This document shows, piece by piece, positions 1 to 13,066 of a DNA stretch of 13,066 nucleotides. How positions within the stretch are numbered: position 1 is the first letter of the stretch; each line of letters begins with the position of its first letter. This stretch comes from Candidatus Vampirococcus lugosii (GTDB lineage: Bacteria; Patescibacteriota; Gracilibacteria; Absconditabacterales; Absconditicoccaceae), in contig NZ_JAEDAM010000030.1 of the NCBI RefSeq assembly GCF_018420025.1, forward strand, positions 1 through 13,066, in the 5' to 3' direction. Under the pieces are notes generated by a model. The model searched no databases and had not been told where the DNA came from. It worked only from the letters and a program-made list of their open reading frames with translations. The position numbers were made by a program, and so were the translations under genes.

Positions 1-2
1 AA

Positions 3-221
3 GAAATACATATTTGTGAAGAAAATGATATATTAAATTGATGTTATTCAGAAATCAAGATAGATTCTATTTCTGATAATTTAATTAGCATTATAATAAA
101 AAATTGAAAAATAATTGATTTTAATACAGTATGCAAAAAAGGCAAGGGCAAGAGTATTGAAGTAGAAAAAAATCTATTTTTGATAAATAAAGGGAATAGT
201 TGATTTATTTTAAGATTTTAG
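3..221 (+). CDS. 3' end of an unidentified CDS entering from the left edge (72 codons under table 25)
   Basis: Frame 3 is open from the window edge to TAG at 219-221, with 4 in-frame TGA read as Gly. Translation ends ...NGKIIDFNTVCKKGKGKSIEVEKNLFLINKGNSGFILRF. The other two plus frames stop at 34-36 and 77-79. No family recognised. Confidence 0.4.
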
Positions 222-260
222 ATTAAAAGTTAAAGATTTTAGATTAAAAGTTAAAGATTT
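213..260. repeat. 21-nt direct tandem repeat AGATTTTAGATTAAAAGTTAA, two exact copies plus a 6-nt partial third
   Basis: Exact copies at 213-233 and 234-254, followed by AGATTT at 255-260. The first copy spans the TAG stop at 219-221 of the partial CDS. Confidence 0.85.
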
Positions 261-440
261 ATTACAAGAATATACATTAAATACATTATTAACTAAATTA
301 AAAAATATAAGTAAAGTTTACTTTAAAATAGATAATATATAAATAAAGTAGAATAAATAAATGAGCTTCAAGAAAAAAATTTAAATTATTTAAAATAAGA
401 TTATAAAATTTATGTAGTACATAAAAATATTTTTATATTA

Positions 441-480
441 TTCTAAATCCTTGTTTAAATCAAGGATTTAGAAATTTTAC
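441..480 (+). terminator. Hairpin terminator candidate (13-bp perfect stem, 7-nt loop)
   Basis: TTCTAAATCCTTG (441-453) pairs perfectly with CAAGGATTTAGAA (461-473). The loop is TTTAAAT and the hairpin is followed by ATTTTAC. It lies 220 nt downstream of the nearest stop codon, so which transcript it ends is unclear. Confidence 0.55.
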
Positions 481-649
481 TCTATAAAGATTAGTTATTC
501 TTTTTTAAACTAATTTTATTAATATTTTCTATTTAATTATCTATTAAATCAACAAATATTTATTATAATTGAAATATAAAAGTTTGTTTATGATTAAAAA
601 TTAAAAACTTAATATTAAAATATATTTTTTAAATATATAATATTAAATT

Positions 650-961
650 ATGAAGAAAATAAATGAAGATTTTGTTTGTGCTAAATGTTGAAAATATGTT
701 CCTATTGCCAAAATTTCTTGTAGGAATCATTGTCCTTATTGTTTTACAAGTATGCATCTGGATCAAAAAATTCCTTGAGATAGAAAAAGTGAATGTAAAT
801 GAGAAATGTTTCCTATAGAGTATAAATTATCTAATTGAGAAATTAAAATTTTATTTAAATGTAAAAAATGTTCTGATATACATTGGAATAAATCAAATAT
901 AGATGATGAAATATCTTGTTTGGATGAATATATTAAAAAATATTATATAGAATTTATTTAA
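650..961 (+). CDS. Small Cys-rich RNHCP-domain protein (103 aa), probable zinc-binding, function unknown
   Basis: ATG at 650, TAA at 959-961, 4 in-frame TGA=Gly. Translation MKKINEDFVCAKCGKYVPIAKISCRNHCPYCFTSMHLDQKIPGDRKSECKGEMFPIEYKLSNGEIKILFKCKKCSDIHWNKSNIDDEISCLDEYIKKYYIEFI. It has the literal C-R-N-H-C-P-Y-C motif plus CxxC pairs, as in the Pfam RNHCP family (recognised from memory, not searched). Confidence 0.75.
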
Positions 962-1055
962 ATCATATTAAAAATTTTTTATTTTTCTTATTTGAAATAT
1001 GCTAGGGTAGTGGTTTTTATCTTAAAAATATGATAAAAAATATAATTTCAAATAT

Positions 1056-1084
1056 TTGACATAATACAATTTTATCAATATAAT
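1056..1084 (+). promoter_or_regulatory. Perfect consensus sigma70-type promoter TTGACA-17 nt-TATAAT
   Basis: TTGACA at 1056-1061, a 17-nt spacer at 1062-1078, TATAAT at 1079-1084. This sits 44 nt upstream of the ATG at 1129. TATAAT alone is common by chance in AT-rich DNA; the full TTGACA plus exact spacing is less so. Confidence 0.6.
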
Positions 1085-1128
1085 ATTTTATTATTATTAT
1101 AAATAATTTTATTTATTCAAAAATAAAA

Positions 1129-2607
1129 ATGGAAAATTTTGTACAAAGATTAAATGAGTTGCAAGATAAAACAAGTCAATTTGATGATGAAGAAAAAAAA
1201 GATAATTTTAATAAAAAAATTGATAATTTAAAAGAAAAAATTGATAATTGAAATGAAATAAATAATGAAGAAATTGAAGAAGAAATTGAAAGAATGGAAA
1301 CTGAATTGAAAGATATAGAACAAGAAAAAGAAAAAGAGAAACAAGAATTAAGTAAAGAAACTAAAGATCAATTGGAAATATTATCTAGTTCAATAGAAGC
1401 TAATAATTTAATAGAATCTTGAGCAAAAATAAAAATTGCAGATAGTATAGATTTAGATTTGCAAGAAACAAAAGATAAAACTAGAAAAATAACATTTTTG
1501 GAAAAAACATTAAGATCCTTTTGAGATATATGAAAATTTATATCAAATGTTTTGTGGGGCAAAACTAAACAAGAAAATATTGATAGTAAAAATGATAATG
1601 AGAAAATAAGTGAACTTTTGGAAAAAAAATGATTTGCTGATAATACTGATATAATTAAATGAACTTTTAATATAATTAATCAAGTACCCTTTGACAAATT
1701 TATGAAAGAAATAAATAATGAAAATAATTCTATTGCTGATATTCAAGTTTATATTGATACTTATTTATCTTCAAAAGAAGAACCTGAAAACTTGAATTTT
1801 AATCAAAAAAATTTTTTGGAAAAATATATTACATTGATAAGATTAAATAAAGATTATATAAATGAAAATATGAAAGAAAAAAATCATAAATATACAATTT
1901 CTGATATCAATGATAAATTATTTTCAATATGAACCAGTCAAGCTGTTTTTAATGAATGAACTACAATTATAGATTGGAAAGATTATTACAAAAAAGAAGA
2001 ATGAAAAAAATATAATAGACCAAATTCAACATCAAATTGATCACAATTGTATGCAAATGAAATTTATATTGATAATTATGAAAGTTTGCAAAATCTTACA
2101 TTAGAACAAATACGAAATCTTGATGAACAAAATATATTAGATATACTAGATTATAGTATACAAGATTCAATTAAAAATTCTTGAAATGCTTTACCTATCA
2201 ATATTTCTTATTTTAAAGATCAAGAAAAACAAAAAGCTTATGAAAAATTAGCTTGAGAAAAAAATATAGAAATACCAAATCAAATTAATTTTAATGATAA
2301 TTATCAACTTGTTATTTGACAAAATAATTATATCATGAAATATGAATGGAATTCAATTAATCCATTTAAATCACGAGAACGATATCAAGCAAAACCAAAT
2401 GATTGATACCAAATGTGATTTGAAAACGATAATTGAACTATAAATATTAATCTTGATGCAGAAATATGATGAAATTATAGTTATAGAATTGATTACAATA
2501 AATTTTCTGAAACAGTATCATCACTTATTTATAATTGAAATTATGAATTAACTTGATTAGATGCTCATAATAGAATATGAAATAAAATTAAATTTATGAA
2601 AACATAA
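1129..2607 (+). CDS. Hypothetical protein, 492 aa: N-terminal charged coiled-coil-like region, C-terminal Gly/Asn/aromatic-rich region
   Basis: ATG 1129 is the first start after the in-frame TAA at 1081-1083. The frame was checked codon by codon to TAA at 2605-2607 and contains 21 in-frame TGA. The standard-code ORF 1702..1932 is an internal fragment in the same frame. The protein starts MENFVQRLNELQDKTSQFDDEEKKDNF and ends NYELTGLDAHNRIGNKIKFMKT. No family recognised. Confidence 0.8.
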
Positions 2608-2615
2608 ATAAAAAT

Positions 2616-2641
2616 AATCCAGAATTTAATCTGGATTTTTA
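2616..2641 (+). terminator. Rho-independent terminator candidate after the 492-aa CDS
   Basis: AATCCAGA (2616-2623) pairs with TCTGGATT (2630-2637). The loop is ATTTAA, a T-run follows (2637-2640), and the hairpin is 9 nt after the stop codon. Confidence 0.65.
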
Positions 2642-2743
2642 TATATTAATAAAATATTTTTTTGCGATATATAAAAAAATCTATATACTAATAATTAAAG
2701 TGTATTTTTGATTTTTTTTATATGTTAAAATAGTCTAAAACTA

Positions 2744-5700
2744 ATGCATAATTTCTTAAATAAAATATTTTGGTTTATATTAATATTATTTATATTGATT
2801 TTTTTATTTTTATCTAATGAATTTGAAGGTCTTTGATTTATTGTTATTATTATTTTAATAACATTAAAATTAACTTATTTTTCAAAAGAAAATATAGAAA
2901 AACAAATTAAAGAATATAAAAATAATATTAAACAAGAAATAATAAATGAGTTAAATATTGAAATAAATAATTCTACATATACAAAAGAACAAGAAACTAC
3001 AGTTGATAAAGAACAAGAAGAATATGTTGATAATCAAAATATTAATTATGATAATTCTTTTGCTGAAACAAAAGAAAATATATTGACAAATAATAATATT
3101 AAAAATAATAATTTAGACAATAGTATAAAAGATAATAATTTAGATAATAATTCTTTTGCTGAAACAAAAGAAAATATATTGATAAATAATGATATAAAAG
3201 ATAATAATTTAGACAATAGTATAAAAGATAATAATTTATCTATATCTGAAATAGATGAAAATGAAAAAGATGAAAATGAAAAAGATGATAATTTAACATT
3301 AGATCTTAAAATAAAATATTCTATAAAATCATTTTTTTCAACAAATATAATGGCAAAGATATGATGAATACTTTTGTCATTATGATTATTGTTTTTTATG
3401 AGTTTAATTTATACTTATTTAAATGATTTTGCAAAAATAATTATATGATTTTCATTCTGATTTATTTTATTTTTATGAGCTTTTTATTTATGAAAAAAAT
3501 GATATTCACTTGAAAGTAAAATATTATTTTGAGTTTCAATTCTTATAAATTATATTGTTATACTTTCTGGTAGATTTATATTGGGTTGAGAAGATTGATA
3601 TTTATGACCTATTCTAACTTTTATTTTATTATTAATGAATACATGATTTTCTGTATATATATCATATACTATAAAATCAAATAATATTTTATTATTTTCA
3701 ATATTTTTTGCATATATTATTCCATTTTTAATTTGATGAGAAGATAGTGCAAATAATATTTTATTAATTATTATATATTCTGTATTTATAAGTTTAGCTT
3801 CATTAGCTTCTTCATATATTAAAAATAAAAATTGAGAAGAATGAACTAGTATTGTATTAAATTATTTTAGTATCATATTATGATCATTGCTTATATTAAC
3901 TACTTCCATTTCTACAAGTCATGAATATTTATTTATATTACAGCTTTTGTGATTTAATTTAATTGTATTTTTAAATATATATTTTGCATATACTAATAAT
4001 TACAAAAAACATATTATAAATATGTTTGTAGCATCTTTTGTATTATTATTATTATTTTTAATTGTTTGAGTTTCTTCCCTTTGAGAATGAATTCAAAATA
4101 TATGGATTATATTATCATATGTATTTTCATTATTTTGAATAAATATATTTATATTGTATTTAGTTTTATCTTGATTTATTGTTTGACAAATTATTTATTT
4201 GTTTTATGTTTCTTTATTTCTTTTCTTTGTATTTGTATTAAGTTTTAATAATTTATTGTTTTTTTATTTTATATTCCCATTGATTCTATTTTTAAAATTT
4301 TTGATATTGTATTTAATATTTTATAAATCTTGAAAAAAAACTCAATTTTATATATTTATTATATTAATATGAGTTTTCATATTATATAATAATTGATATT
4401 TATTTATGAATAATTCATATGAAATAACATTGATTAATTATTTTATGATATTTTTTACTTCATTAATATATTTACTATTTTCATACTTTTTTTCTTTCAA
4501 AAAATGATATAATTTTTTATATGTTTTATGAACTTATTTTTTCATAGCTATTTTTACACCTTTTATAGATTATGAATCTAGCAATATTATTTATACTTTA
4601 TTCTTTATAATAATTTTTAATATACTTAGTTTCTCTCTTCCTATTTTTAATAAAAATTTGATAGAATATAATATATACAGTCTTATCAAATGACTTTTGG
4701 TTTCTATATTGTATGTTATATTTTCATATTATGAATTACGAAATTCTTTTTGAATTTCTATTAATTTTTGATATTTTGTTATTTTAATTTCAATTATATG
4801 TTTTATAATTTGATATTATATTAGTATCAAAAATAATATAAATATACTCTCTAATGAGAAACTAGAAGAAAAACAAGAAAATATAAGAAATTCTTCGTAT
4901 TTATATATTTTTAGTTCAGTTCTTATATTTATGCTTTCAATTATTATTATTTTTTCTGATAATATATATTGAATTGATGCTTTTGCACGGCTTTGTATAT
5001 CATCTATTGTATTTTTACTTTATAGTAGAACTTCTATACATAAATTATTAGTTTTTTGAATAATAATTTTTACTATGTGAATAATAAAATATTTTGCATC
5101 TCTTTGAGAAATTGTAAATAGTTCTTCATATGAAATATATTATATTTTTTCATTTTTAATTATATTGTTAATTCTTTATATAAATATAATAAAAACTAAA
5201 AAAGCAAAAGATAATTATCTTTATTATATATATTTTCTTCATTTTTTATGAATATTAATTACATATGGTGGAATATATGTTATTTTAAATTCGTATTTTG
5301 ATGTTAATTTATTAGTTTATTTATGAATTGTTAATTTAATTTCATATATATCATATAAAGAATTAAATTTTCCTTTATTATTAAAAGTTAATTGATTTAT
5401 TATTTATATGATAACTTTTTTTCAATTATTTATAACAAATTTAATAAATCCATATTTTTATAATTATATATTTACATTAATTATTTTAATAATATCATTT
5501 TTAGATATTTATTATTACAAATTAAAATATAAATATTTAACATATATATTAATAATATATATATTATTAATATCTTCAATTTATATATATAACATTGTTG
5601 GTAATCATATTGCACTAACTATATATTGGTGATTAATATCTTTATTTTCTATATATTATTGATTTATTTTTATGAATCCTATATATAGATCTTTTGGTTT

Positions 5701-5893
5701 ATTGATTATTTCAATTACTATTACTAAAATGTTAATGTATGATATATGGGCTAATTTAGATAATTGAGTTATAAGAGTTTTTGCATTTATGTTAATATGA
5801 AGTATAATGATATATTTATCAATGTTATATTGAAAATATAAAATATCTGCAAAATCTGATTTCAATATACTGATAGATAAGTTAAAAAATTAG
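2744..5893 (+). CDS. DUF2339-like giant polytopic membrane protein (1049 aa) with an N-terminal Asn/Asp/Lys-rich low-complexity insert
   Basis: ATG 2744 is the first start after the in-frame TAA at 2726-2728. The frame was verified codon by codon to TAG at 5891-5893 and contains 47 in-frame TGA by hand count. Layout: N-terminal TM helix (FWFILILFILIFLFL), about 170 aa of charged low-complexity sequence, then many hydrophobic segments. The C-terminus RSFGLLIISITITKMLMYDIWANLDNGVIRVFAFMLIGSIMIYLSMLYGKY resembles the conserved DUF2339 C-terminal motif (from memory). The standard-code ORFs 3083..3364 and 5408..5632 are in-frame fragments. Confidence 0.8.
3053..3238 (+). repeat. In-frame 96-nt (32-codon) tandem duplication inside the DUF2339-like CDS
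   Basis: Copy 1 (3053-3148) encodes NSFAETKENILTNNNIKNNNLDNSIKDNNLDN. Copy 2 (3149-3238) encodes NSFAETKENILINNDIKDNNLDNSIKDNNL. There are only a few substitutions between them. Just downstream, GATGAAAATGAAAAA is repeated twice (DENEKDENEK). Confidence 0.85.
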
Positions 5894-6014
5894 TTTAAAT
5901 ATAAAAAATATAATCAAAAAAACTTGTAATAAACTAAAATATATCAAATTGTATTTTGTATCATTTTTTGTGTTAAATATATTATATATTTTCTCAAAAT
6001 TAGTTAATTTTCTC

Positions 6015-6042
6015 TTGAATTTTTCAATAGCATCTATATAAT
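6015..6042 (+). promoter_or_regulatory. Candidate dnaK promoter TTGAAT-16 nt-TATAAT
   Basis: TTGAAT at 6015-6020 and TATAAT at 6037-6042, with a 16-nt spacer, about 60 nt upstream of the dnaK ATG. A short inverted repeat TATCAT-N3-ATGATA at 6051-6065 follows. The AT-rich background makes this weak evidence. Confidence 0.4.
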
Positions 6043-6101
6043 ATAGGTGCTATCATAAGATGATATGATAAATTATTTACATTTTAAAAAATAAATAAAT
6101 T

Positions 6102-8012
<1,911 letters not shown>

Positions 8013-8024
8013 TATATTAAATAT

Positions 8025-8058
8025 AAAAAAGAATTGTATTAATTTACAATTCTTTTTT
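8025..8058. terminator. Bidirectional hairpin terminator shared by convergent dnaK and rsmE
   Basis: AAAAAAGAATTGTA (8025-8038) pairs perfectly with TACAATTCTTTTTT (8045-8058); the loop is TTAATT. The A-run and T-run arms give a U-tract on either strand. It starts 13 nt after the dnaK stop, and its right arm overlaps the rsmE stop codon (8057-8059). Confidence 0.7.
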
Positions 8059-8782
8059 AATATATAAAATTTTTTAAAATCCAAGAAGAAACTATAATTC
8101 ATGTTTCTGCTCTCAAAACACTATTTCATAAAGAAATTTTCTTATAATTAAATTTTTCTAATATTGAATAATCATAATTTGAAAATCATCATTCTGGACC
8201 ACATATTCCCCATAAATTTTTTTTATCAAAATTTGATTTTTCAATATTTATTAAATCAATTCCCCCAAAATCAAATATACATAAACTTATATCTTCCAAA
8301 AAATCTAATAAATTATCTATTTTTTTTATTTTTGGTAATGCAAACATTCAACTTTGTTGTACTGCATCTATTGATATTTTTTTAAATTTTTCAAATTTTT
8401 TATCTGAAATATTTTTTATTTGACTATTTGAAGATTTCCAAAAAATAATATTTTCTATTCATATCTCAGTTAATTTTTGGACTATTAAATCCATTTTATC
8501 AAAATTATTTAGTATTGGAACTAAATATCAAGATTTTTTTTGTAAAATATTTATTTTTTGACAAAAAGTAATTTTTGCAATTATTTCATCTTTCTTAATT
8601 TCATATAATATTACTGTATATACATTTATATTACTTAATTCTCAATAAAAAAAAGGTTTATGAATTTGAAATTCATATCCAGATTTAGCTCTAAGAACAT
8701 TTTTAATTTTATTAACAACATTTAAATCTCAAATATAAATATAATTATTTTTTTTATCAAAACTAGTTATAAATTTTTGCAT
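8057..8782 (-). CDS. rsmE: 16S rRNA (uracil1498-N3)-methyltransferase RsmE, 241 aa
   Basis: Hand translation from ATG (8782) to TAA (8057-8059) gives MQKFITSFDKKNNYIYIGDLNVVNKIKNVLRAKSGYEFQIHKPFFYGEL. The C-terminal part, LWGICGPEGGFSNYDYSILEKFNYKKISLGNSVLRAETGIIVSSWILKN, matches the RsmE IGPEGGF...LG.RILRAETA signature. There are 9 in-frame TGA, including both glycines after PE in PEGGF. Confidence 0.85.
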
Positions 8783-8790
8783 ATTATTTT

Positions 8791-9240
8791 TTATTTTTCT
8801 ATAGATTTATCTATTTTTTCTGATGATGATGCCAAACTAGCAATAATTATTTTTCAATCTATAAACTTATATATAGGTATAATAAAAAGTCTAATTAATA
8901 AAAGAATAGCAATAAAATAGAATATAAAAACATATTCAAAATCTTCTCAAAAATCTTCTATTCAAAAATAGTCAACAAATATAATATATGAAATTATTAT
9001 ATTCATAATCTCCAAAAGAATAAGTACAGTTCAATCATCATTAAAATTTCTTATATACTTAATATATTCTTTTGTTATATTTATTTTAGAAACTTTTTTC
9101 TTATATTTTTGAAATATTTCATTTCAAGGATAATATTTATTTGCAAAATTGACCAAATTTTTACATCTAATATAATCTTTATCTTGCCAAGATTTTTTTA
9201 TCATTTGTTCCAAATTCATTTCATGTACTGGATTTTTCAT
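8791..9240 (-). CDS. Small membrane protein, paralog A (149 aa): about 70-aa soluble N-domain plus two predicted TM helices
   Basis: ATG at 9240, TAA at 8791-8793, frame checked codon by codon. The N-terminal part is MKNPVHEMNLEQMIKKSWQDKDYIRCKNLVNFANKYYPGNEIFQKYKKKVSKINITKEYIKYIRNFNDDG. The rest is TVLILLEIMNIIISYIIFVDYFGIEDFGEDFEYVFIFYFIAILLLIRLFIIPIYKFIDGKIIIASLASSSEKIDKSIEK. It ends 8 nt before the rsmE start. No family recognised. Confidence 0.75.
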
Positions 9241-9318
9241 CTAATATGTTTAATATGAATAAACTATTTAATTTAAAAAATTCTATTTTTATATAAAATA
9301 TATTAAAAAACTAAAATT

Positions 9319-9714
9319 TTAATAACTTAAAACTTTTTTTCAATAAATAATATTATAAATAGAAAAAATATTAAATCTAATTAATAAAAGAATAGCAATA
9401 AAATAAAATATAAATGTATATTCAAAATTTTCTATTCAAAAAAATTTAATAAATATTAGATATGTAAAATATATACTAATAACTTCCAAAATAATAAATA
9501 AAATTCAATTATCATTAAAATTTCTTACATATCTAATATATTCTTTTTTTATATTTATTTTAGAAATTTTTCTTTTATATTTTTGTCATATTTCATTTCA
9601 AGGATAATATTTATTTGCAAAATTGACTAGATTTTTGCATCTAATATAATCTCTATTTTTCCAAGATTTTTTTATCATTTGTTCCAAATACATTTCTTGT
9701 ACTGGATTTTTCAT
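9319..9714 (-). CDS. Small membrane protein, paralog B (131 aa), tandem duplicate of 8791..9240
   Basis: ATG at 9714, TAA at 9319-9321, frame checked codon by codon. The N-terminal part is MKNPVQEMYLEQMIKKSWKNRDYIRCKNLVNFANKYYPGNEIGQKYKRKISKINIKKEYIRYVRNFNDNG. The rest is ILFIILEVISIYFTYLIFIKFFGIENFEYTFIFYFIAILLLIRFNIFSIYNIIYGKKVLSY. 58 of the first 70 residues are identical to paralog A. Confidence 0.75.
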
Positions 9715-9740
9715 TTTATTTATAAATTATTATAAATAAA

Positions 9741-10733
9741 TTATTTTATTTTAGAAATCTTAATTTTTTCATCTAACTGATCTTGAACAGATTTTAATAA
9801 CTTAGGACTTTCTTTTAATAAATTTGAAAGATTTTCTTTTCATTGTACTTTTTTGTCTCATACTGAATAAAATGCTCCTGATCTTTGAATTATATCAAAA
9901 AACATAGCAGCATCCAATAGATCAGACATTTTATCAATTCATTGATTAAATTTAACAGTTATTTCAGCAGTTTTAAATGGAGGTGAAATTTTATTTTTAA
10001 CAACTTTAATTTTAGCTTTATATCATATTTGTTCTTTATCTTCTTCTATCTTTTCTCACCTTCTAATTTCTATTCTTTGAGATGCAAAAAATTTAAGTGC
10101 ATTTCATCCAGATGTAACTTCAGGACTTCAAAATATAACACCTATTTTACTCCTTATTTGATTAATAAAAATAACAGTAGTACCAGTTTTGGAAAGAACT
10201 CAAGCTAATTTTCTTAAACCTTGTGACATAAGTCTTGCTTGTAATCACATATGACTGTCTCCCATATCTCATTCTATTTCAGCTTTTGGAACTAATGCTG
10301 CAACACTATCAATAACTATTAATTTAATAATTCATGTTTGTGCCAATTCTTGTGCAATTTGTAAAGCTTGTTCACCATAATCAGGTTGTGATAAAAGTAA
10401 ATCATCAGTTTTTACTCATAATTTTTTTGCATATTCTGGATCCAAAGCATGTTCTGCATCAATAAATGCAGCCATTTCTCATTTTTTTTGTATTTCTGAA
10501 ATGGCATGTAATGCAAATGTTGTTTTACCACTACTTTCAGGTCAATAAATTTCAACAATCCTACCATGAGGATAACCACCACCAACTATAGTATTCATAA
10601 TATATGATCATGTAGAAAATGTACTTATCTTACCATAATCAATATTGTCTCATAATCTCATTATAGATCATTTTCAAAATTCTTTTTCAATACTTTTGAA
10701 TGCATCAGTTAATATTTGTTTTTTATCTGTCAT
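9741..10733 (-). CDS. recA: Recombinase RecA, 330 aa
   Basis: The translation starts MTDKKQILTDAFKSIEKEFGKGSIMRLGD. It contains [28 protein letters not shown] (Walker A), [99 protein letters not shown] and KVVKNKISPPFKTAEI. About 18 in-frame TGA all fall at conserved RecA glycines. Length is 993 nt and it ends at TAA (9741-9743). Confidence 0.97.
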
Positions 10734-10761
10734 AATTATTATTTAATTTATAAATTTAACA

Positions 10762-11448
10762 CTATGATTGTTCTTTATGTGAATTTGGATTATTAACTTT
10801 GAATAATAAAGATACTATTTCATTTATATCTAATTTTTCACAAAATAATCAAATTCACTTCAATCATTCTTCAACTATATTTGTTCTTACATCCAAATGT
10901 TTTTTATTCTTTACAAAATTTCTATATCTACTTACAACTTTTTCTGGATTTTCTTTTGAATCTAAAACATCCATCAATTTTTTCCACCAAGGCTTAGATA
11001 TTTCTTGAGTATCATTAGCACCATGATAATAAGGTATTATCACATAAAATTCTTTAGTATATATTAATCATTGATTAGAATTTATTTTTTCAAGATAATT
11101 ATAATATTCTTTACCTTGTCGTTTCAAAACATCATTTTCAATTCCATCAATTTTTTCTTCAATGAAAGAAATGTAATCAGTAAGATCAAGATAAGTACTG
11201 CGAGCTAATATTTGTATAGAAAAATCTAATCAATTTATAAATCTTTTGTACTGTTCTATAACTACTTGTTGTTCATCATAATTTCTAAGATCAAGATTTA
11301 ATCAAAAGACTTTAATAATAGATCTTAATCATCAATCTTTTAATATAACTACATTATTTCTTATCTCTGATATATCCAATAGATTCTCTGTATTAAATTG
11401 ATTTTCATTTTGTTTAGATTTTTTAATTTTTTTAGCTTCGTCATACAT
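10762..11448 (-). CDS. Hypothetical protein (228 aa) resembling the N-terminal non-ATPase region of VirB4/TraE-type (Gram-positive style) conjugation ATPases; no ATPase domain present
   Basis: ATG 11448 is the first start after the in-frame TAA at 11455-11457. TAG is at 10762-10764 and the frame was checked codon by codon. Translation: MYDEAKKIKKSKQNENQFNTENLLDISEIRNNVVILKDGGLRSIIKVFGLNLDLRNYDEQQVVIEQYKRFINGLDFSIQILARSTYLDLTDYI...KEFYVIIPYY...GLFCEKLDINEIVSLLFKVNNPNSHKEQS. The CDS call is solid. The family resemblance is pattern recognition from memory only. Confidence 0.75.
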
Positions 11449-11502
11449 TTTTAATTATACAATCTTTTTAATATAAAATTAACAAAACTTTTATCAAACA
11501 TA

Positions 11503-12690
11503 TTATTTCAATAAATCCTCAAACAAAGTATCTAAATCAATTTCTTCATCTTCATCTTCATTTTCATCAACAGAATTTAATTCAGATATTTTAACTTCAA
11601 ACTCATTTTTTATATTCAATAATATTGCATATATCAAATTTCTATTTTGAAATGAAAGATTAAAAGATTCAACTTGAGAAAATATACTTGATAATTTTTC
11701 CAACTTATCAGACAAAATTTCTGAATCTTCTATATTTTTAACATAATTTTGAGTCATTAATTTTATATCTTGATATTCTTGTTTATTTTTAGTATTAAGT
11801 CTATTAAACATATTATCTACTTCTTTTTTCCTTTCAGATAAACTTTTTTCAGCTTTTTCAGATAAAGTTTCTCTGTTTATTTCTATATTTTCATTATTTT
11901 CTATGTTTTCATTATTTTCTATATTTTCATCATTTATATTTTCAAATCAAACTTCCAAAACTTTTCAATTCCACCATCATAAAGTAATATCAGCTTGATA
12001 AAAATTATTTCAATCTGTATAAGAAACTCTAGCAGTATTTGATTCAATCCAATCTATATTTGTAACTTCAAAATATTCTTTACCAATAGGTTCATAACTA
12101 GACATAGATGTTATATATCTATGTATATGATTATTGTATATTTTAGTAAAATCTAAACTATTAATATATTCTTCTGTATATATTTCTTCTGGACTTTTTC
12201 CTTCAATATTTTCTTCTTCAACATTTTCTTCTTCAACATTTTCTTCTTCAACATTTTCTTCTTCAATATTTTCTTCTTCAATATTTTCTTCTTCAATATT
12301 TTCTTCTTCAATATTTTCTTCTTCAATATTTTCTTCTTCAACATTTTCTTCTTCAATATTTTCTTCTTCAATATTTTCTTCTTCAACATTTTCTTCTTCA
12401 ATATTTTCTTCTTCAACATTTTCTTCTTCAACATTTTCTTCTTCAATATTTTCTTCTTCAATATTTTCTTCTTTAATATTTTCTTCTTCAATATTTTCTT
12501 CTTTAATATTTTCTTCTTCAATATTTTCTTCTTCAATATTTTCTTCTTCAATATTTTCGTTATCTTGTTCCGCTCTTTCAAGTTCTTCTCTAAGAGCATC
12601 CAAATCATTATCTAAATAATCTTGAGAACTAACAAAATGTGTACCAAAAACAACTATAACAAAAAATGTAAATATAATATTTCTTTGCAT
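11503..12690 (-). CDS. Secreted hyper-acidic tandem-repeat protein (395 aa): signal peptide, 24 x (E-E-N-I/V-E) pentapeptides, small globular domain, ENIENN repeats, coiled-coil-like acidic C-terminus
   Basis: ATG at 12690, TAA at 11503-11505, 1188 nt. The standard-code ORFs 12010..12690 and 11503..11811 are in the same frame and join through TGA=Gly at 12010-12012 (...ARVSYTD-G-NNFYQADITLGWWNGKVLEVGFENI...). The joining segment was checked codon by codon. The N-terminus MQRNIIFTFFVIVVFGTHFVSSQDY looks like a Sec signal peptide. Confidence 0.8.
11881..11934 (-). repeat. 18-nt tandem repeat x3 (encodes the NDENIE/NNENIE hexapeptides) inside the acidic protein CDS
   Basis: Plus-strand units are TTCTATATTTTCATTATT (11881), TTCTATGTTTTCATTATT (11899) and TTCTATATTTTCATCATT (11917). 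Confidence 0.85.
12199..12558 (-). repeat. 15-nt in-frame tandem repeat x24 (plus strand TTCTTCTTCAAYATT type) encoding ENIEE/ENVEE/ENIKE pentapeptides
   Basis: 360 nt of head-to-tail 15-mers, read directly. The only variable positions are AAT/AAC (Ile/Val) and TTC/TTT (Glu/Lys) on the plus strand. All three frames on both strands lack standard-code stops here, which produces the overlapping artefact ORFs in the track. Confidence 0.95.
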
Positions 12691-12727
12691 TAATCTTTTA
12701 ATTTAAATTATAAAAATTTATATAAAC

Positions 12728-12755
12728 ATTATAATAAAGAAATTAAATAATTCAA
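12728..12755 (-). promoter_or_regulatory. Candidate promoter TTGAAT-16 nt-TATAAT for the acidic repeat protein gene / minus-strand gene run
   Basis: On the minus strand, TTGAAT lies at 12755-12750 and TATAAT at 12733-12728, with a 16-nt spacer, about 37 nt upstream of the ATG at 12690. These are the same hexamers and spacing as the dnaK candidate. The AT-rich background applies here too. Confidence 0.4.
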
Positions 12756-12772
12756 GTAATTTTTATTTTTTT

Positions 12773-12799
12773 GTGCCAGCAATGTTAAATTGTTGGTAC
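12773..12799. promoter_or_regulatory. Imperfect 10-bp-arm palindrome GTGCCAGCAA-N7-TTGTTGGTAC, an isolated G/C-containing element in an AT-rich intergenic region
   Basis: Left arm 12773-12782, loop TGTTAAA, right arm 12790-12799. Eight Watson-Crick pairs plus two positions that are G-T on the plus strand and A-C on the minus strand. It sits 18 nt upstream of the candidate -35 at 12750-12755. Confidence 0.35.
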
Positions 12800-12994
12800 A
12801 AATAAGATCTTTTTTAATTTTTAATAAACAATATTATGTATTTATATATTAAATATATTTTAGGTAATATAAAAATATTTTGTTGAGTTTAAGAATTATT
12901 ATTTGATTTTTATATTAATTATTTATACTATTATTGACATTTTAATTTTTTATTAATATTTTAAACTTGCTGTTAAAATATTTATTTTAATATA

Positions 12995-13066
12995 CTAAAA
13001 TTCATTATTCAAAAAAGTATTTAATTTTTGTTCAAAATCATCATAAACATTAATTATAGAATCTAT
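12995..13066 (-). CDS. Possible 3' end of a CDS entering from the right edge (23 codons)
   Basis: The minus-strand frame is open from the window edge to TAG (12995-12997) and reads IDSIINVYDDFEQKLNTFLNNEF. It is too short to identify or to exclude chance. Confidence 0.3.
   Translation of the reverse strand: MDSIINVYDDFEQKLNTFLNNEF

Follow-up and report, generated by a model that had tools for sequence, protein, structure and literature searches.

A family of hyper-acidic tandem-repeat proteins with predicted signal peptides in Candidatus Vampirococcus lugosii and its closest relatives

Results

Here we describe a gene on the minus strand (11503..12690) of a 13,066-nucleotide (nt) stretch of DNA from Candidatus Vampirococcus lugosii (contig NZ_JAEDAM010000030.1 of assembly GCF_018420025.1, positions 1 to 13,066), called the window throughout. 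As judged from sequence comparison, it is a single real gene that is read through four TGA codons as glycine, and it belongs to an unnamed protein family that is so far found only in V. lugosii, Candidatus Absconditicoccus praedator, and the two metagenome-assembled genomes (MAGs) with the closest RecA. On balance, we think it probable that the encoded protein is an exported polyanion in which a conserved core for binding or oligomerisation is joined to a fast-evolving, length-variable acidic arm. The gene comprises the following parts, in which AF2 denotes AlphaFold2, pLDDT its predicted local distance difference test score, and TRF Tandem Repeats Finder:

11503..12690, minus strand: complete coding sequence in genetic code 25, 395 codons plus TAA; orthologs align over the full length except for the repeats
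12625..12690, minus strand: Sec-type signal peptide MQRNIIFTFFVIVVFGTHFVSS with a predicted cut VSS/QD, codons 1-22; called from hydropathy and a crude n/h/c-region rule
12559..12624, minus strand: acidic pre-repeat segment QDYLDNDLDALREELERAEQDN, codons 23-44; AF2 helix with pLDDT up to ~68; alignment gapped, not conserved
12199..12558, minus strand: 24 x 15-nt tandem array ENIEE/ENVEE/ENIKE, codons 45-164; from TRF and a table of units; 57.5% Glu, net charge -67
11944..12195, minus strand: conserved alpha/beta domain, codons 166-249; 50-60% identity over four species
11947..12012, minus strand: cluster of four TGA (Gly) codons at 12010-12012, 11977-11979, 11965-11967, and 11947-11949; columns G227, G238, G242, and G248 invariant
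11869..11943, minus strand: variable acidic/Asn-rich linker with 3 x 18-nt ENIENN (11875..11928), codons 250-274; TRF period 18, 3.1 copies, 92%; differs in every ortholog
11560..11868, minus strand: conserved helical domain, codons 275-377; region of the phmmer matches, 34-38% identity, 22 invariant columns
11506..11559, minus strand: acidic tail ending L(E/F)DLL(E/K), codons 378-395; invariant L386, E391, D392, L393, and L394

A single gene under genetic code 25

When only TAA and TAG are taken as stops, the locus contains one open reading frame (ORF) of 395 amino acids (aa) running from an ATG at 12690 to a TAA at 11503-11505; under table 11, it is divided into ORFs of 226 aa (12010..12690, minus strand) and 102 aa (11503..11811, minus strand). 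The window, which has a G+C content of 19.6%, holds hardly any long ORFs in table 11 and resolves into ten clean genes once only TAA and TAG stop. Across these ten genes, 154 TGA codons are used compared to 47 GGN codons, and TGA occupies universally invariant glycine positions of Hsp70 (IIxIDLxTTNS and DLxxGTFD) and of the RecA P-loop (xPESSGKT), so that code 25 is certain from the window alone. In agreement with this, V. lugosii has been reported to use code 25, and also to have a Sec system (PMC8080830).

The gene has four in-frame TGA codons (codons 227, 238, 242, and 248). Among the 63 columns that are invariant in an alignment of the four family members are all four of these TGA-encoded glycines, which proves comparatively that this is one gene under TGA=Gly, and the frame across the TGA cluster is open in all four orthologous genes. 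The homologs from the two MAGs were called with TGA=Trp and carry W in some of the invariant Gly columns and G in others. An earlier note on this DNA had proposed, from the letters and a list of ORFs, that the two table-11 ORFs fuse into one 395-aa protein via TGA=Gly and that further in-frame TGA codons lie between them, and both proposals are borne out by the frame and by the Gly columns of the four orthologs.

A family in two predators and two related MAGs

A phmmer search with the stop-free C-terminal 122 aa against 1.84 billion cluster representatives returned exactly three matches (E = 4.9e-12, 4.2e-8, and 2.9e-7), each of which aligned to its own C-terminus. One is the 'hypothetical protein' HLG78_02740 of A. 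praedator (UFX83029.1/WP_231180843.1), and the remaining two come from the MAGs GCA_964483725.1 and GCA_964394325.1 (proteins P0125 and P0127). The RecA proteins of both MAGs (74-75% identical) are the closest to V. lugosii RecA after that of A. praedator. Both MAG records are titled 'Candidatus Peribacteria', while their RecA is closest to Absconditabacteria. For the MAG proteins (P0125 and P0123), gene calling had used TGA=Trp and started at internal Met codons, whereby the signal peptide and repeats were lost; retranslated in code 25, the MAG loci contain full-length ORFs with signal peptides and acidic repeats (L007:7647-8747 and L009:1442-2545), and in both NCBI records runs of N lie inside the acidic repeat.

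Other searches were less productive. No relative was found when the C-terminal 232 aa were queried by word-index homology, or in scans of the GTDB and JGI metagenome collections with the single protein; with the four-sequence alignment as query, GTDB returned only the two known MAGs, and JGI and IMG/VR returned none. Exact look-ups of the 395-aa, 226-aa, and 102-aa products found none on record, the 395-aa product having been sought in a collection of 15 billion proteins. RecA and the TraC-like protein (MBS8122003.1) encoded next to the gene are on record in the collections, and the best match to the V. lugosii protein in a library clustered at 50% identity is only 39% identical; we therefore conclude that the protein itself is absent from this library although its neighbours are present. 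The deposited V. lugosii annotation may lack this coding sequence.

The homologs are 34-37% identical to the V. lugosii protein over the whole length, and the members range from at least 366 to 395 aa. All four share one layout, consisting of a Sec-type signal peptide, a hyper-acidic tandem repeat, an alpha/beta domain of ~84 aa, an acidic linker, a helical domain of ~100 aa, and a terminal L(E/F)DLL(E/K) motif. The protein of A. praedator and those of the MAGs (P0125 and P0127) are thus true homologs, having the six-part architecture and the C-terminal LEDLL motif in common with the V. lugosii protein, but they differ from it in their acidic units (108 nt and 54 nt versus 15 nt) and in their genomic context.

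Predicted signal peptide and net charge

The N-terminus contains the sole hydrophobic segment of the protein, with a maximal Kyte-Doolittle hydropathy over 11 residues of 3.3 at residues 5-15. The leaders of the four orthologs, each given with the residue after the predicted cut, are MQRNIIFTFFVIVVFGTHFVSS/Q, MKKFISFLSIIALISALSYVNA/E, MLKRNLSVISIIAIIFSLSTVSA/N, and MRKLITFLSILFLSANLAFG/Q. Each has a K/R n-region, a hydrophobic core of 14-17 residues, and a small-x-small site (VSS/Q, VNA/E, VSA/N, and AFG/Q) with the acidic region directly after it, and all four pass the crude n/h/c rule. The Sec-type signal peptide proposed in the earlier note is thus supported, as a rule-based prediction, by the same n/h/c pattern in every ortholog.

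The protein contains 128 Asp and Glu compared to 28 Lys and Arg, giving a net charge of -100. None of its 395 residues is Cys, and it is therefore not a lipoprotein. A sortase anchor (LPXTG, hydrophobic segment, and basic tail) was also not found; the C-terminal residues are acidic (DEEIDLDTLFEDLLK), and hydrophobic sequence is confined to the N-terminus. Acidity is a property of the entire family, with whole-protein net charges of -90 to -129 and N-terminal regions that consist of 54-60% Asp and Glu and contain 0-5 basic residues. Because cytoplasmic proteins encoded in the window are basic (isoelectric points of 9.0 for RecA and 9.1 for RsmE), the acidity is specific to this protein rather than proteome-wide.

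The 15-nt array and the second repeat

TRF identifies the main array (12201..12558, period 15, 23.9 copies, 96% matches, score 653) as by far the strongest repeat in the window. In register, it consists of 24 units, of which 14 are GAAAATATTGAAGAA (ENIEE), seven have GTT (ENVEE), two have AAA (ENIKE), and the terminal one has GGA (ENIEG). Units 1-23 vary only in columns 7 and 10, in both cases by an A/G transition that changes the amino acid, and there are no synonymous differences among the 120 codons. The description of 24 near-perfect 15-nt repeats is thus confirmed, the restriction to two variable nucleotide positions holding for units 1-23, and the proposal of recent expansion or homogenisation is supported by the lack of synonymous variation and by the unrelated 54- and 108-nt units that relatives have at this position. 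Also present as claimed, according to TRF and the translation, are the second ENIENN repeat, the Trp/Tyr-rich segment, and the acidic tail.

The N-terminal repeats of the family have units of 15 nt x 23.9 in V. lugosii (96%), 108 nt x 2.5 in A. praedator (98%), and 54 nt x 5.2 in one MAG (89%). All unit lengths are multiples of 3, and the units have no shared sequence. As the repeat unit is completely different between species, it is the charge and not the sequence that is conserved. In A. praedator, a copy of the N-terminal unit is present in the linker (49-nt exact match). We dropped the idea of intragenic copying between linker and N-terminal array for V. lugosii, in which the longest match is 8 nt and at background, so that such copying is clear only in A. 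praedator. A pentapeptide-repeat beta-helix (A(D/N)LXX) was likewise rejected for the array, because no match to the Pentapeptide hidden Markov model (PF00805) was found even at E <= 10, the core-facing i-2 position (register xNIxx) is Glu in every unit, and AF2 predicts coil.

Reads of 2x125 nt, obtained from DNA amplified by multiple displacement amplification (MDA) or multiple annealing and looping-based amplification cycles (MALBAC), were assembled with SPAdes into the V. lugosii genome (PMC8080830). The longest exact self-match in the main array is 74 nt; no 77-mer thus occurs twice, and reads of 125 nt are in principle long enough to establish the 24 copies, although a graph with k=55 is ambiguous. 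We compared the window with Logan contigs L001 (SRR13241709) and L002 (SRR13241708), which are independent assemblies of V. lugosii libraries. L001 has 0 mismatches to the window and ends inside the 15-nt array. L002 differs from the window only within ~30 nt of each end, at repeats, and ends inside the 18-nt repeat. The 'RecA at 95% identity' of these contigs simply reflects TGA translated as Trp. The order of units in the second repeat is AAC-unit, AAT-unit, terminal in L002 and AAT-unit, AAC-unit, terminal in the window (L002:1-60 versus 11875..11935), which implies one extra 18-nt ENIENN unit in L002, that is, at least 4 units versus 3. This extra unit is suggestive only and could be real heterogeneity between the amplified consortia or an artefact of amplification or of the assembly graph. 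The length variability suggested in the earlier note is thus hinted at for the second repeat, the sole site of a copy-number difference between these two libraries of one population; the 15-nt array is broken in the Logan contigs.

Two conserved domains

The alpha/beta domain is marked by the motifs SPExIYTxEYI, NFTEIYN, FEVxNI(D/E)WI, DGxNxY, and LGWWNGxV, and 35 of its 87 alignment columns are invariant. An AF2 model of the N-terminal 226 aa (pLDDT 46) shows the array as coil at pLDDT values under 50; for the start of the alpha/beta domain, before the first TGA, it predicts helices (167-195) and then strands (208-216 and 219-225). In the model of the C-terminal 147 aa, helices are predicted at 273-318, 323-340, and 347-372, together with a short terminal one at 386-394 (mean pLDDT 65.6, core 70-82).

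Searches of Pfam, NCBIfam, PHROGs, and PADLOC with all four members gave low-complexity noise only (Extensin_1 at 0.082 and phrog_892 at 0.045), and Foldseek found no match below E = 1 in the PDB for the C-terminal model. SH3 domains came top in a PDB profile search (E = 0.2-0.8). The alpha/beta domain has no match to the SH3 families of Pfam, and an SH3 fold for its beta part is unsupported, hhalign against an SH3 alignment giving a probability of 8.9%. We also considered a putative NTF2-like or PepSY-like fold, solely from the helix-then-strands pattern of the predicted structure.

Genomic neighbourhood and the link to recA

In V. lugosii, the gene is followed on the minus strand by a 54-nt gap, a TraC-like gene, a 28-nt gap, recA, two paralogous small membrane protein genes, and rsmE. 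The features of this region outside the gene itself are:

12998..13066, minus strand: 3' end of a gene (...IDSIINVYDDFEQKLNTFLNNEF*) cut by the contig end; no match in the recA neighbourhoods of the relatives
10762..11448, minus strand: TraC-like protein (PF26593) of 228 aa, 'hypothetical' in NCBI; strongly conserved, E = 1e-102 to 1e-114
9741..10733, minus strand: recA; product 100% identical to V. lugosii RecA
8791..9240 and 9319..9714, minus strand: paralogous small membrane proteins downstream of recA; 92/149 aligned positions identical

In V. lugosii, A. praedator, and the two MAGs, the four Absconditabacteria looked at here, the TraC-like gene always lies directly upstream of recA (L003, L004, and L006). 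A. praedator and both MAGs share the block EF-P / TraC-like / RecA / small protein, and no relative of our gene is present in their recA neighbourhoods. Instead, the A. praedator homolog follows a pair of genes for a HisKA kinase and an OmpR-type regulator (L012:4021-5914), and the homologs of the MAGs are located between an integrase-like gene and yaaA in one and after a Peptidase_M15 gene in the other. Because the homologs are elsewhere in the three relatives and EF-P occupies the corresponding position, the proximity to recA is incidental, and we reject an operon logic with recA on the basis of synteny. The gene had been described as the first of the recA-containing run; this is correct positionally, except that the fragment at 12998..13066 belongs to another minus-strand gene ahead of it, and no functional link to recA is indicated.

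A. praedator and one MAG, two of the four species, have a small stand-alone winged-helix (Trans_reg_C-like) gene 3' of the homolog (96 and 89 aa; L012:7334-7624 and L013:2233-2502). The kinase/regulator and winged-helix neighbours, which are absent in V. lugosii, may represent a regulatory link. The small membrane protein pair appears as a tandem duplicate of a single 137-154-aa gene located after recA in the relatives. At its 3' end, L002 has MKNPVYEMNLEQ, in which the N-termini of both small membrane proteins are combined, a hint of recombination or heterogeneity between the copies.

Discussion

Our results favour a model whereby a precursor exported by Sec would be cut after Ser22 to yield a protein of 373 aa with a net charge of about -101. 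In the absence of a Cys lipobox, a second hydrophobic segment, and an LPXTG motif, the mature protein would be released or held at the cell surface non-covalently. In this model, the two conserved domains would make up the working core for ligand binding and/or oligomerisation, while the N-terminal 140 residues would form a disordered polyanionic arm under selection for charge and length rather than for sequence. Binding or buffering of Mg2+/Ca2+ and water is the probable function of the arm, solubility in brine being another possible service. In the saline lakes inhabited by the two cultivated hosts, it could also act as an electrostatic spacer or brush, be it within the envelope or in the predator-prey gap. 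The array would grow and shrink in frame by slippage or unequal recombination. A. praedator was reportedly described by Yakimov et al. in 2022 from a saline lake and is said to prey on purple sulfur bacteria; V. lugosii, also from a saline lake, is an epibiotic predator of purple sulfur bacteria (PMC8080830).

Several observations count against this model. The crude n/h/c rule is also passed by 15 of 72 control ORFs and is therefore weak on its own. Low-complexity acidic or Asn-rich repeats are found in two further window genes (those for the DUF2339 protein and a 492-aa protein), and mutational drift could account for some of the repeat expansion, given how frequent coding repeats of low complexity are in a genome of 19.6% G+C. 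Cation binding by the arm and a role at the prey interface are purely inferred, and the saline-lake connection is drawn from two species, V. lugosii and A. praedator. The main rival takes up the same line of thought and holds that the acidic repeats are neutral low-complexity slippage products of an AT-rich genome, comparable to the Glu/Asn-rich repeats of Plasmodium falciparum, and that only the two conserved domains matter. It draws on the low G+C content and the 73 TRF rows in the 13-kb window, including those in the DUF2339 and 492-aa proteins, on an array unit built of the most AT-rich codons (GAA, AAT, and ATT), and on a repeat sequence that is not conserved between species. Yet in all four species an acidic region of at least 70 residues with 54-60% Asp and Glu sits at the same position and is nearly devoid of K/R (0-5 residues), and this acidity is kept despite differences in unit length, in palette (E/N/I; E/D/Y/V/G/M; D/E/P/T), and in gene G+C content (22-33%), as would be expected if charge were under selection. 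We therefore regard neutral origin of the repeats as unlikely, although it deserves to be taken seriously.

The remaining alternatives concern where the protein resides and whether it is one protein at all. The N-terminal segment could be an uncleaved signal anchor, making the protein a type-II membrane protein in which the acidic repeat is an extracellular stalk for the conserved domains; in its favour, the sole hydrophobic segment is N-terminal and has 16-17 residues, and cleavage is predicted only. A membrane span would, however, normally be longer, the helix-breaking residues G-T-H terminate the segment in V. lugosii, and a small-x-small site comes after it in every one of the four orthologs; we find a signal anchor rather improbable. 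Hyper-acidic proteins such as Ocr and ArdA can mimic DNA, and the gene lies on the same strand and 54 nt upstream of the TraC-like gene, itself 28 nt upstream of recA, as would suit a cytoplasmic polyanionic DNA mimic or regulator acting with these genes. The signal peptide that is conserved in all orthologs argues against this idea, the homologs at unrelated sites, none of them near recA in three relatives, argue strongly against it, and no PADLOC, Pfam, or PHROG match points to an Ocr- or ArdA-like protein; it seems to us very improbable. Finally, we attach practically no weight to two separate genes or a decaying pseudogene with TGA as true stops. The split into 226-aa and 102-aa ORFs in table 11 and the lack of the exact 395-aa product among 15 billion proteins would fit this explanation, but TGA=Gly is proven inside the window, and the stretch between the two ORFs (LGWWNG) is the best-conserved part of the family with Gly in all orthologs, so that the alignment has already refuted it.

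An exported protein with an acidic arm finds its closest described analogues in Arp and TP0470 of Treponema pallidum, which are envelope-directed, have near-perfect in-frame repeats whose copy number differs between strains, and are unresolved in short-read genomes (PMC9531955). As in these proteins, the repeats belong to a bacterium with a reduced genome and have few variable positions, each of them amino-acid-changing; the sequences are not homologous. Arp differs by its 60-bp units and C-terminal SPOR domain and TP0470 by its TPR domain, and the family described here has neither; no match to SPOR or to any other Pfam or NCBIfam domain was found in the four members. The genome of P. falciparum is very AT-rich. 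RESA of this parasite has EENV repeats, the number of which differs between parasite clones (PMC11737873, PMC2900597). The peptide motif of our array, from GAA, AAT, and GTT codons, is nearly identical to that of this unrelated eukaryotic protein (EENV/EENI), by a convergence driven by composition. Surface repeats of mollicutes include those of Ureaplasma MBA and the R1 repeat of Mycoplasma hyopneumoniae P97, an AAKPV/E pentapeptide with a 15-nt unit, and here the likeness lies in the combination of a signal sequence with short tandem repeats that stay in frame, in a bacterium that depends on a host and has a reduced, AT-rich genome. The repeats of these proteins, however, are not hyper-acidic. 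MBA is a lipoprotein with a Cys lipobox, whereas our protein has no Cys and consequently not the lipobox (Cys at +1) of the Mycoplasma Vlp and Ureaplasma MBA class, and there is no homology. The tandem-repeat proteins (TRPs) of Ehrlichia are strongly acidic. In E. chaffeensis, TRP32, TRP47, and TRP120 are effectors that are secreted by type 1 secretion and lack an N-terminal signal peptide (PMC3417381). They resemble our probably exported protein in being secreted tandem-repeat proteins of a host-cell-dependent bacterium, and their sequences are unrelated to it. In light of these comparisons, the V. lugosii protein is an apparently exported tandem-repeat protein of a host-dependent bacterium with a reduced genome; what is new are its two undescribed conserved domains, and no new principle is indicated.

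To our knowledge, predation by Absconditabacteria has been observed directly in V. lugosii and A. praedator alone. The family is confined so far to both predators and the two MAGs nearest to them, and its net charge near -100 is an extreme conserved property. This makes it a tangible candidate, inexpensive to test, for acting at the surface of the predator or where it meets its prey. In V. lugosii, annotation is lacking for about half of the genes (PMC8080830). It is tempting to speculate, as a long shot, that the family is a component of the weapon or interface of the 'vampire' Absconditabacteria, with a secreted polyanion of >100 carboxylates serving either to strip Mg2+/Ca2+ in an EDTA-like manner or as a matrix in the gap. 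In the first case, Mg2+/Ca2+ would be taken from the lipopolysaccharide or S-layer of the prey (purple sulfur bacteria) and the outer membrane would be loosened as by EDTA; in the second, the protein would provide the hydrated filling of the gap of ~100 nm that is observed to separate the membranes of predator and prey. Either way, the alpha/beta and helical domains would target or assemble the protein and the repeat arm would be retuned for each predator-prey pair. The family also bears on annotation practice. Gene calling with the wrong genetic code removed the signal peptide and repeats from the MAG copies, short-read assemblies have gaps inside the repeat, and the V. lugosii protein is seemingly missing from public protein sets; moreover, a word-index homology search missed the whole family, which was recovered by an exhaustive HMMER search.

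Additional features of the window

Upstream of the gene lies an AT-rich spacer:

12691..12997, no strand assigned: spacer of ~300 nt with 12% G+C

It includes a promoter-like TTGAAT-16-TATAAT (12755..12728, minus strand). As a promoter scan gave 22 sites compared to 19.6 expected and thus no excess over shuffled sequence, this site is not evidence of function. Rfam and tRNA scans had no match in the window, the hairpin described next included, and a terminator scan was uninformative. The sole G+C-containing element of the spacer is an imperfect 10-bp hairpin at 12773..12799, GTGCCAGCAA-TGTTAAA-TTGTTGGTAC, with -18.6 kcal/mol on the plus strand, where a T-run follows, versus -7.9 kcal/mol on the minus strand; there is no plus-strand gene upstream of it.

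Among the other genes of the window, a 1049-aa DUF2339 multi-pass membrane protein (2744..5893, plus strand) has a 96-nt tandem repeat (95% matches) at 3051..3290, within an acidic/Asn-rich N-terminal loop. A 492-aa protein with no family match (1129..2607, plus strand) has an acidic, E/K-rich N-terminus that includes a 21-nt repeat (1192..1263), and 21 TGA codons. A small zinc-ribbon protein with an RNHCP domain (PF12647, E = 3e-23) is encoded at 650..961 on the plus strand.

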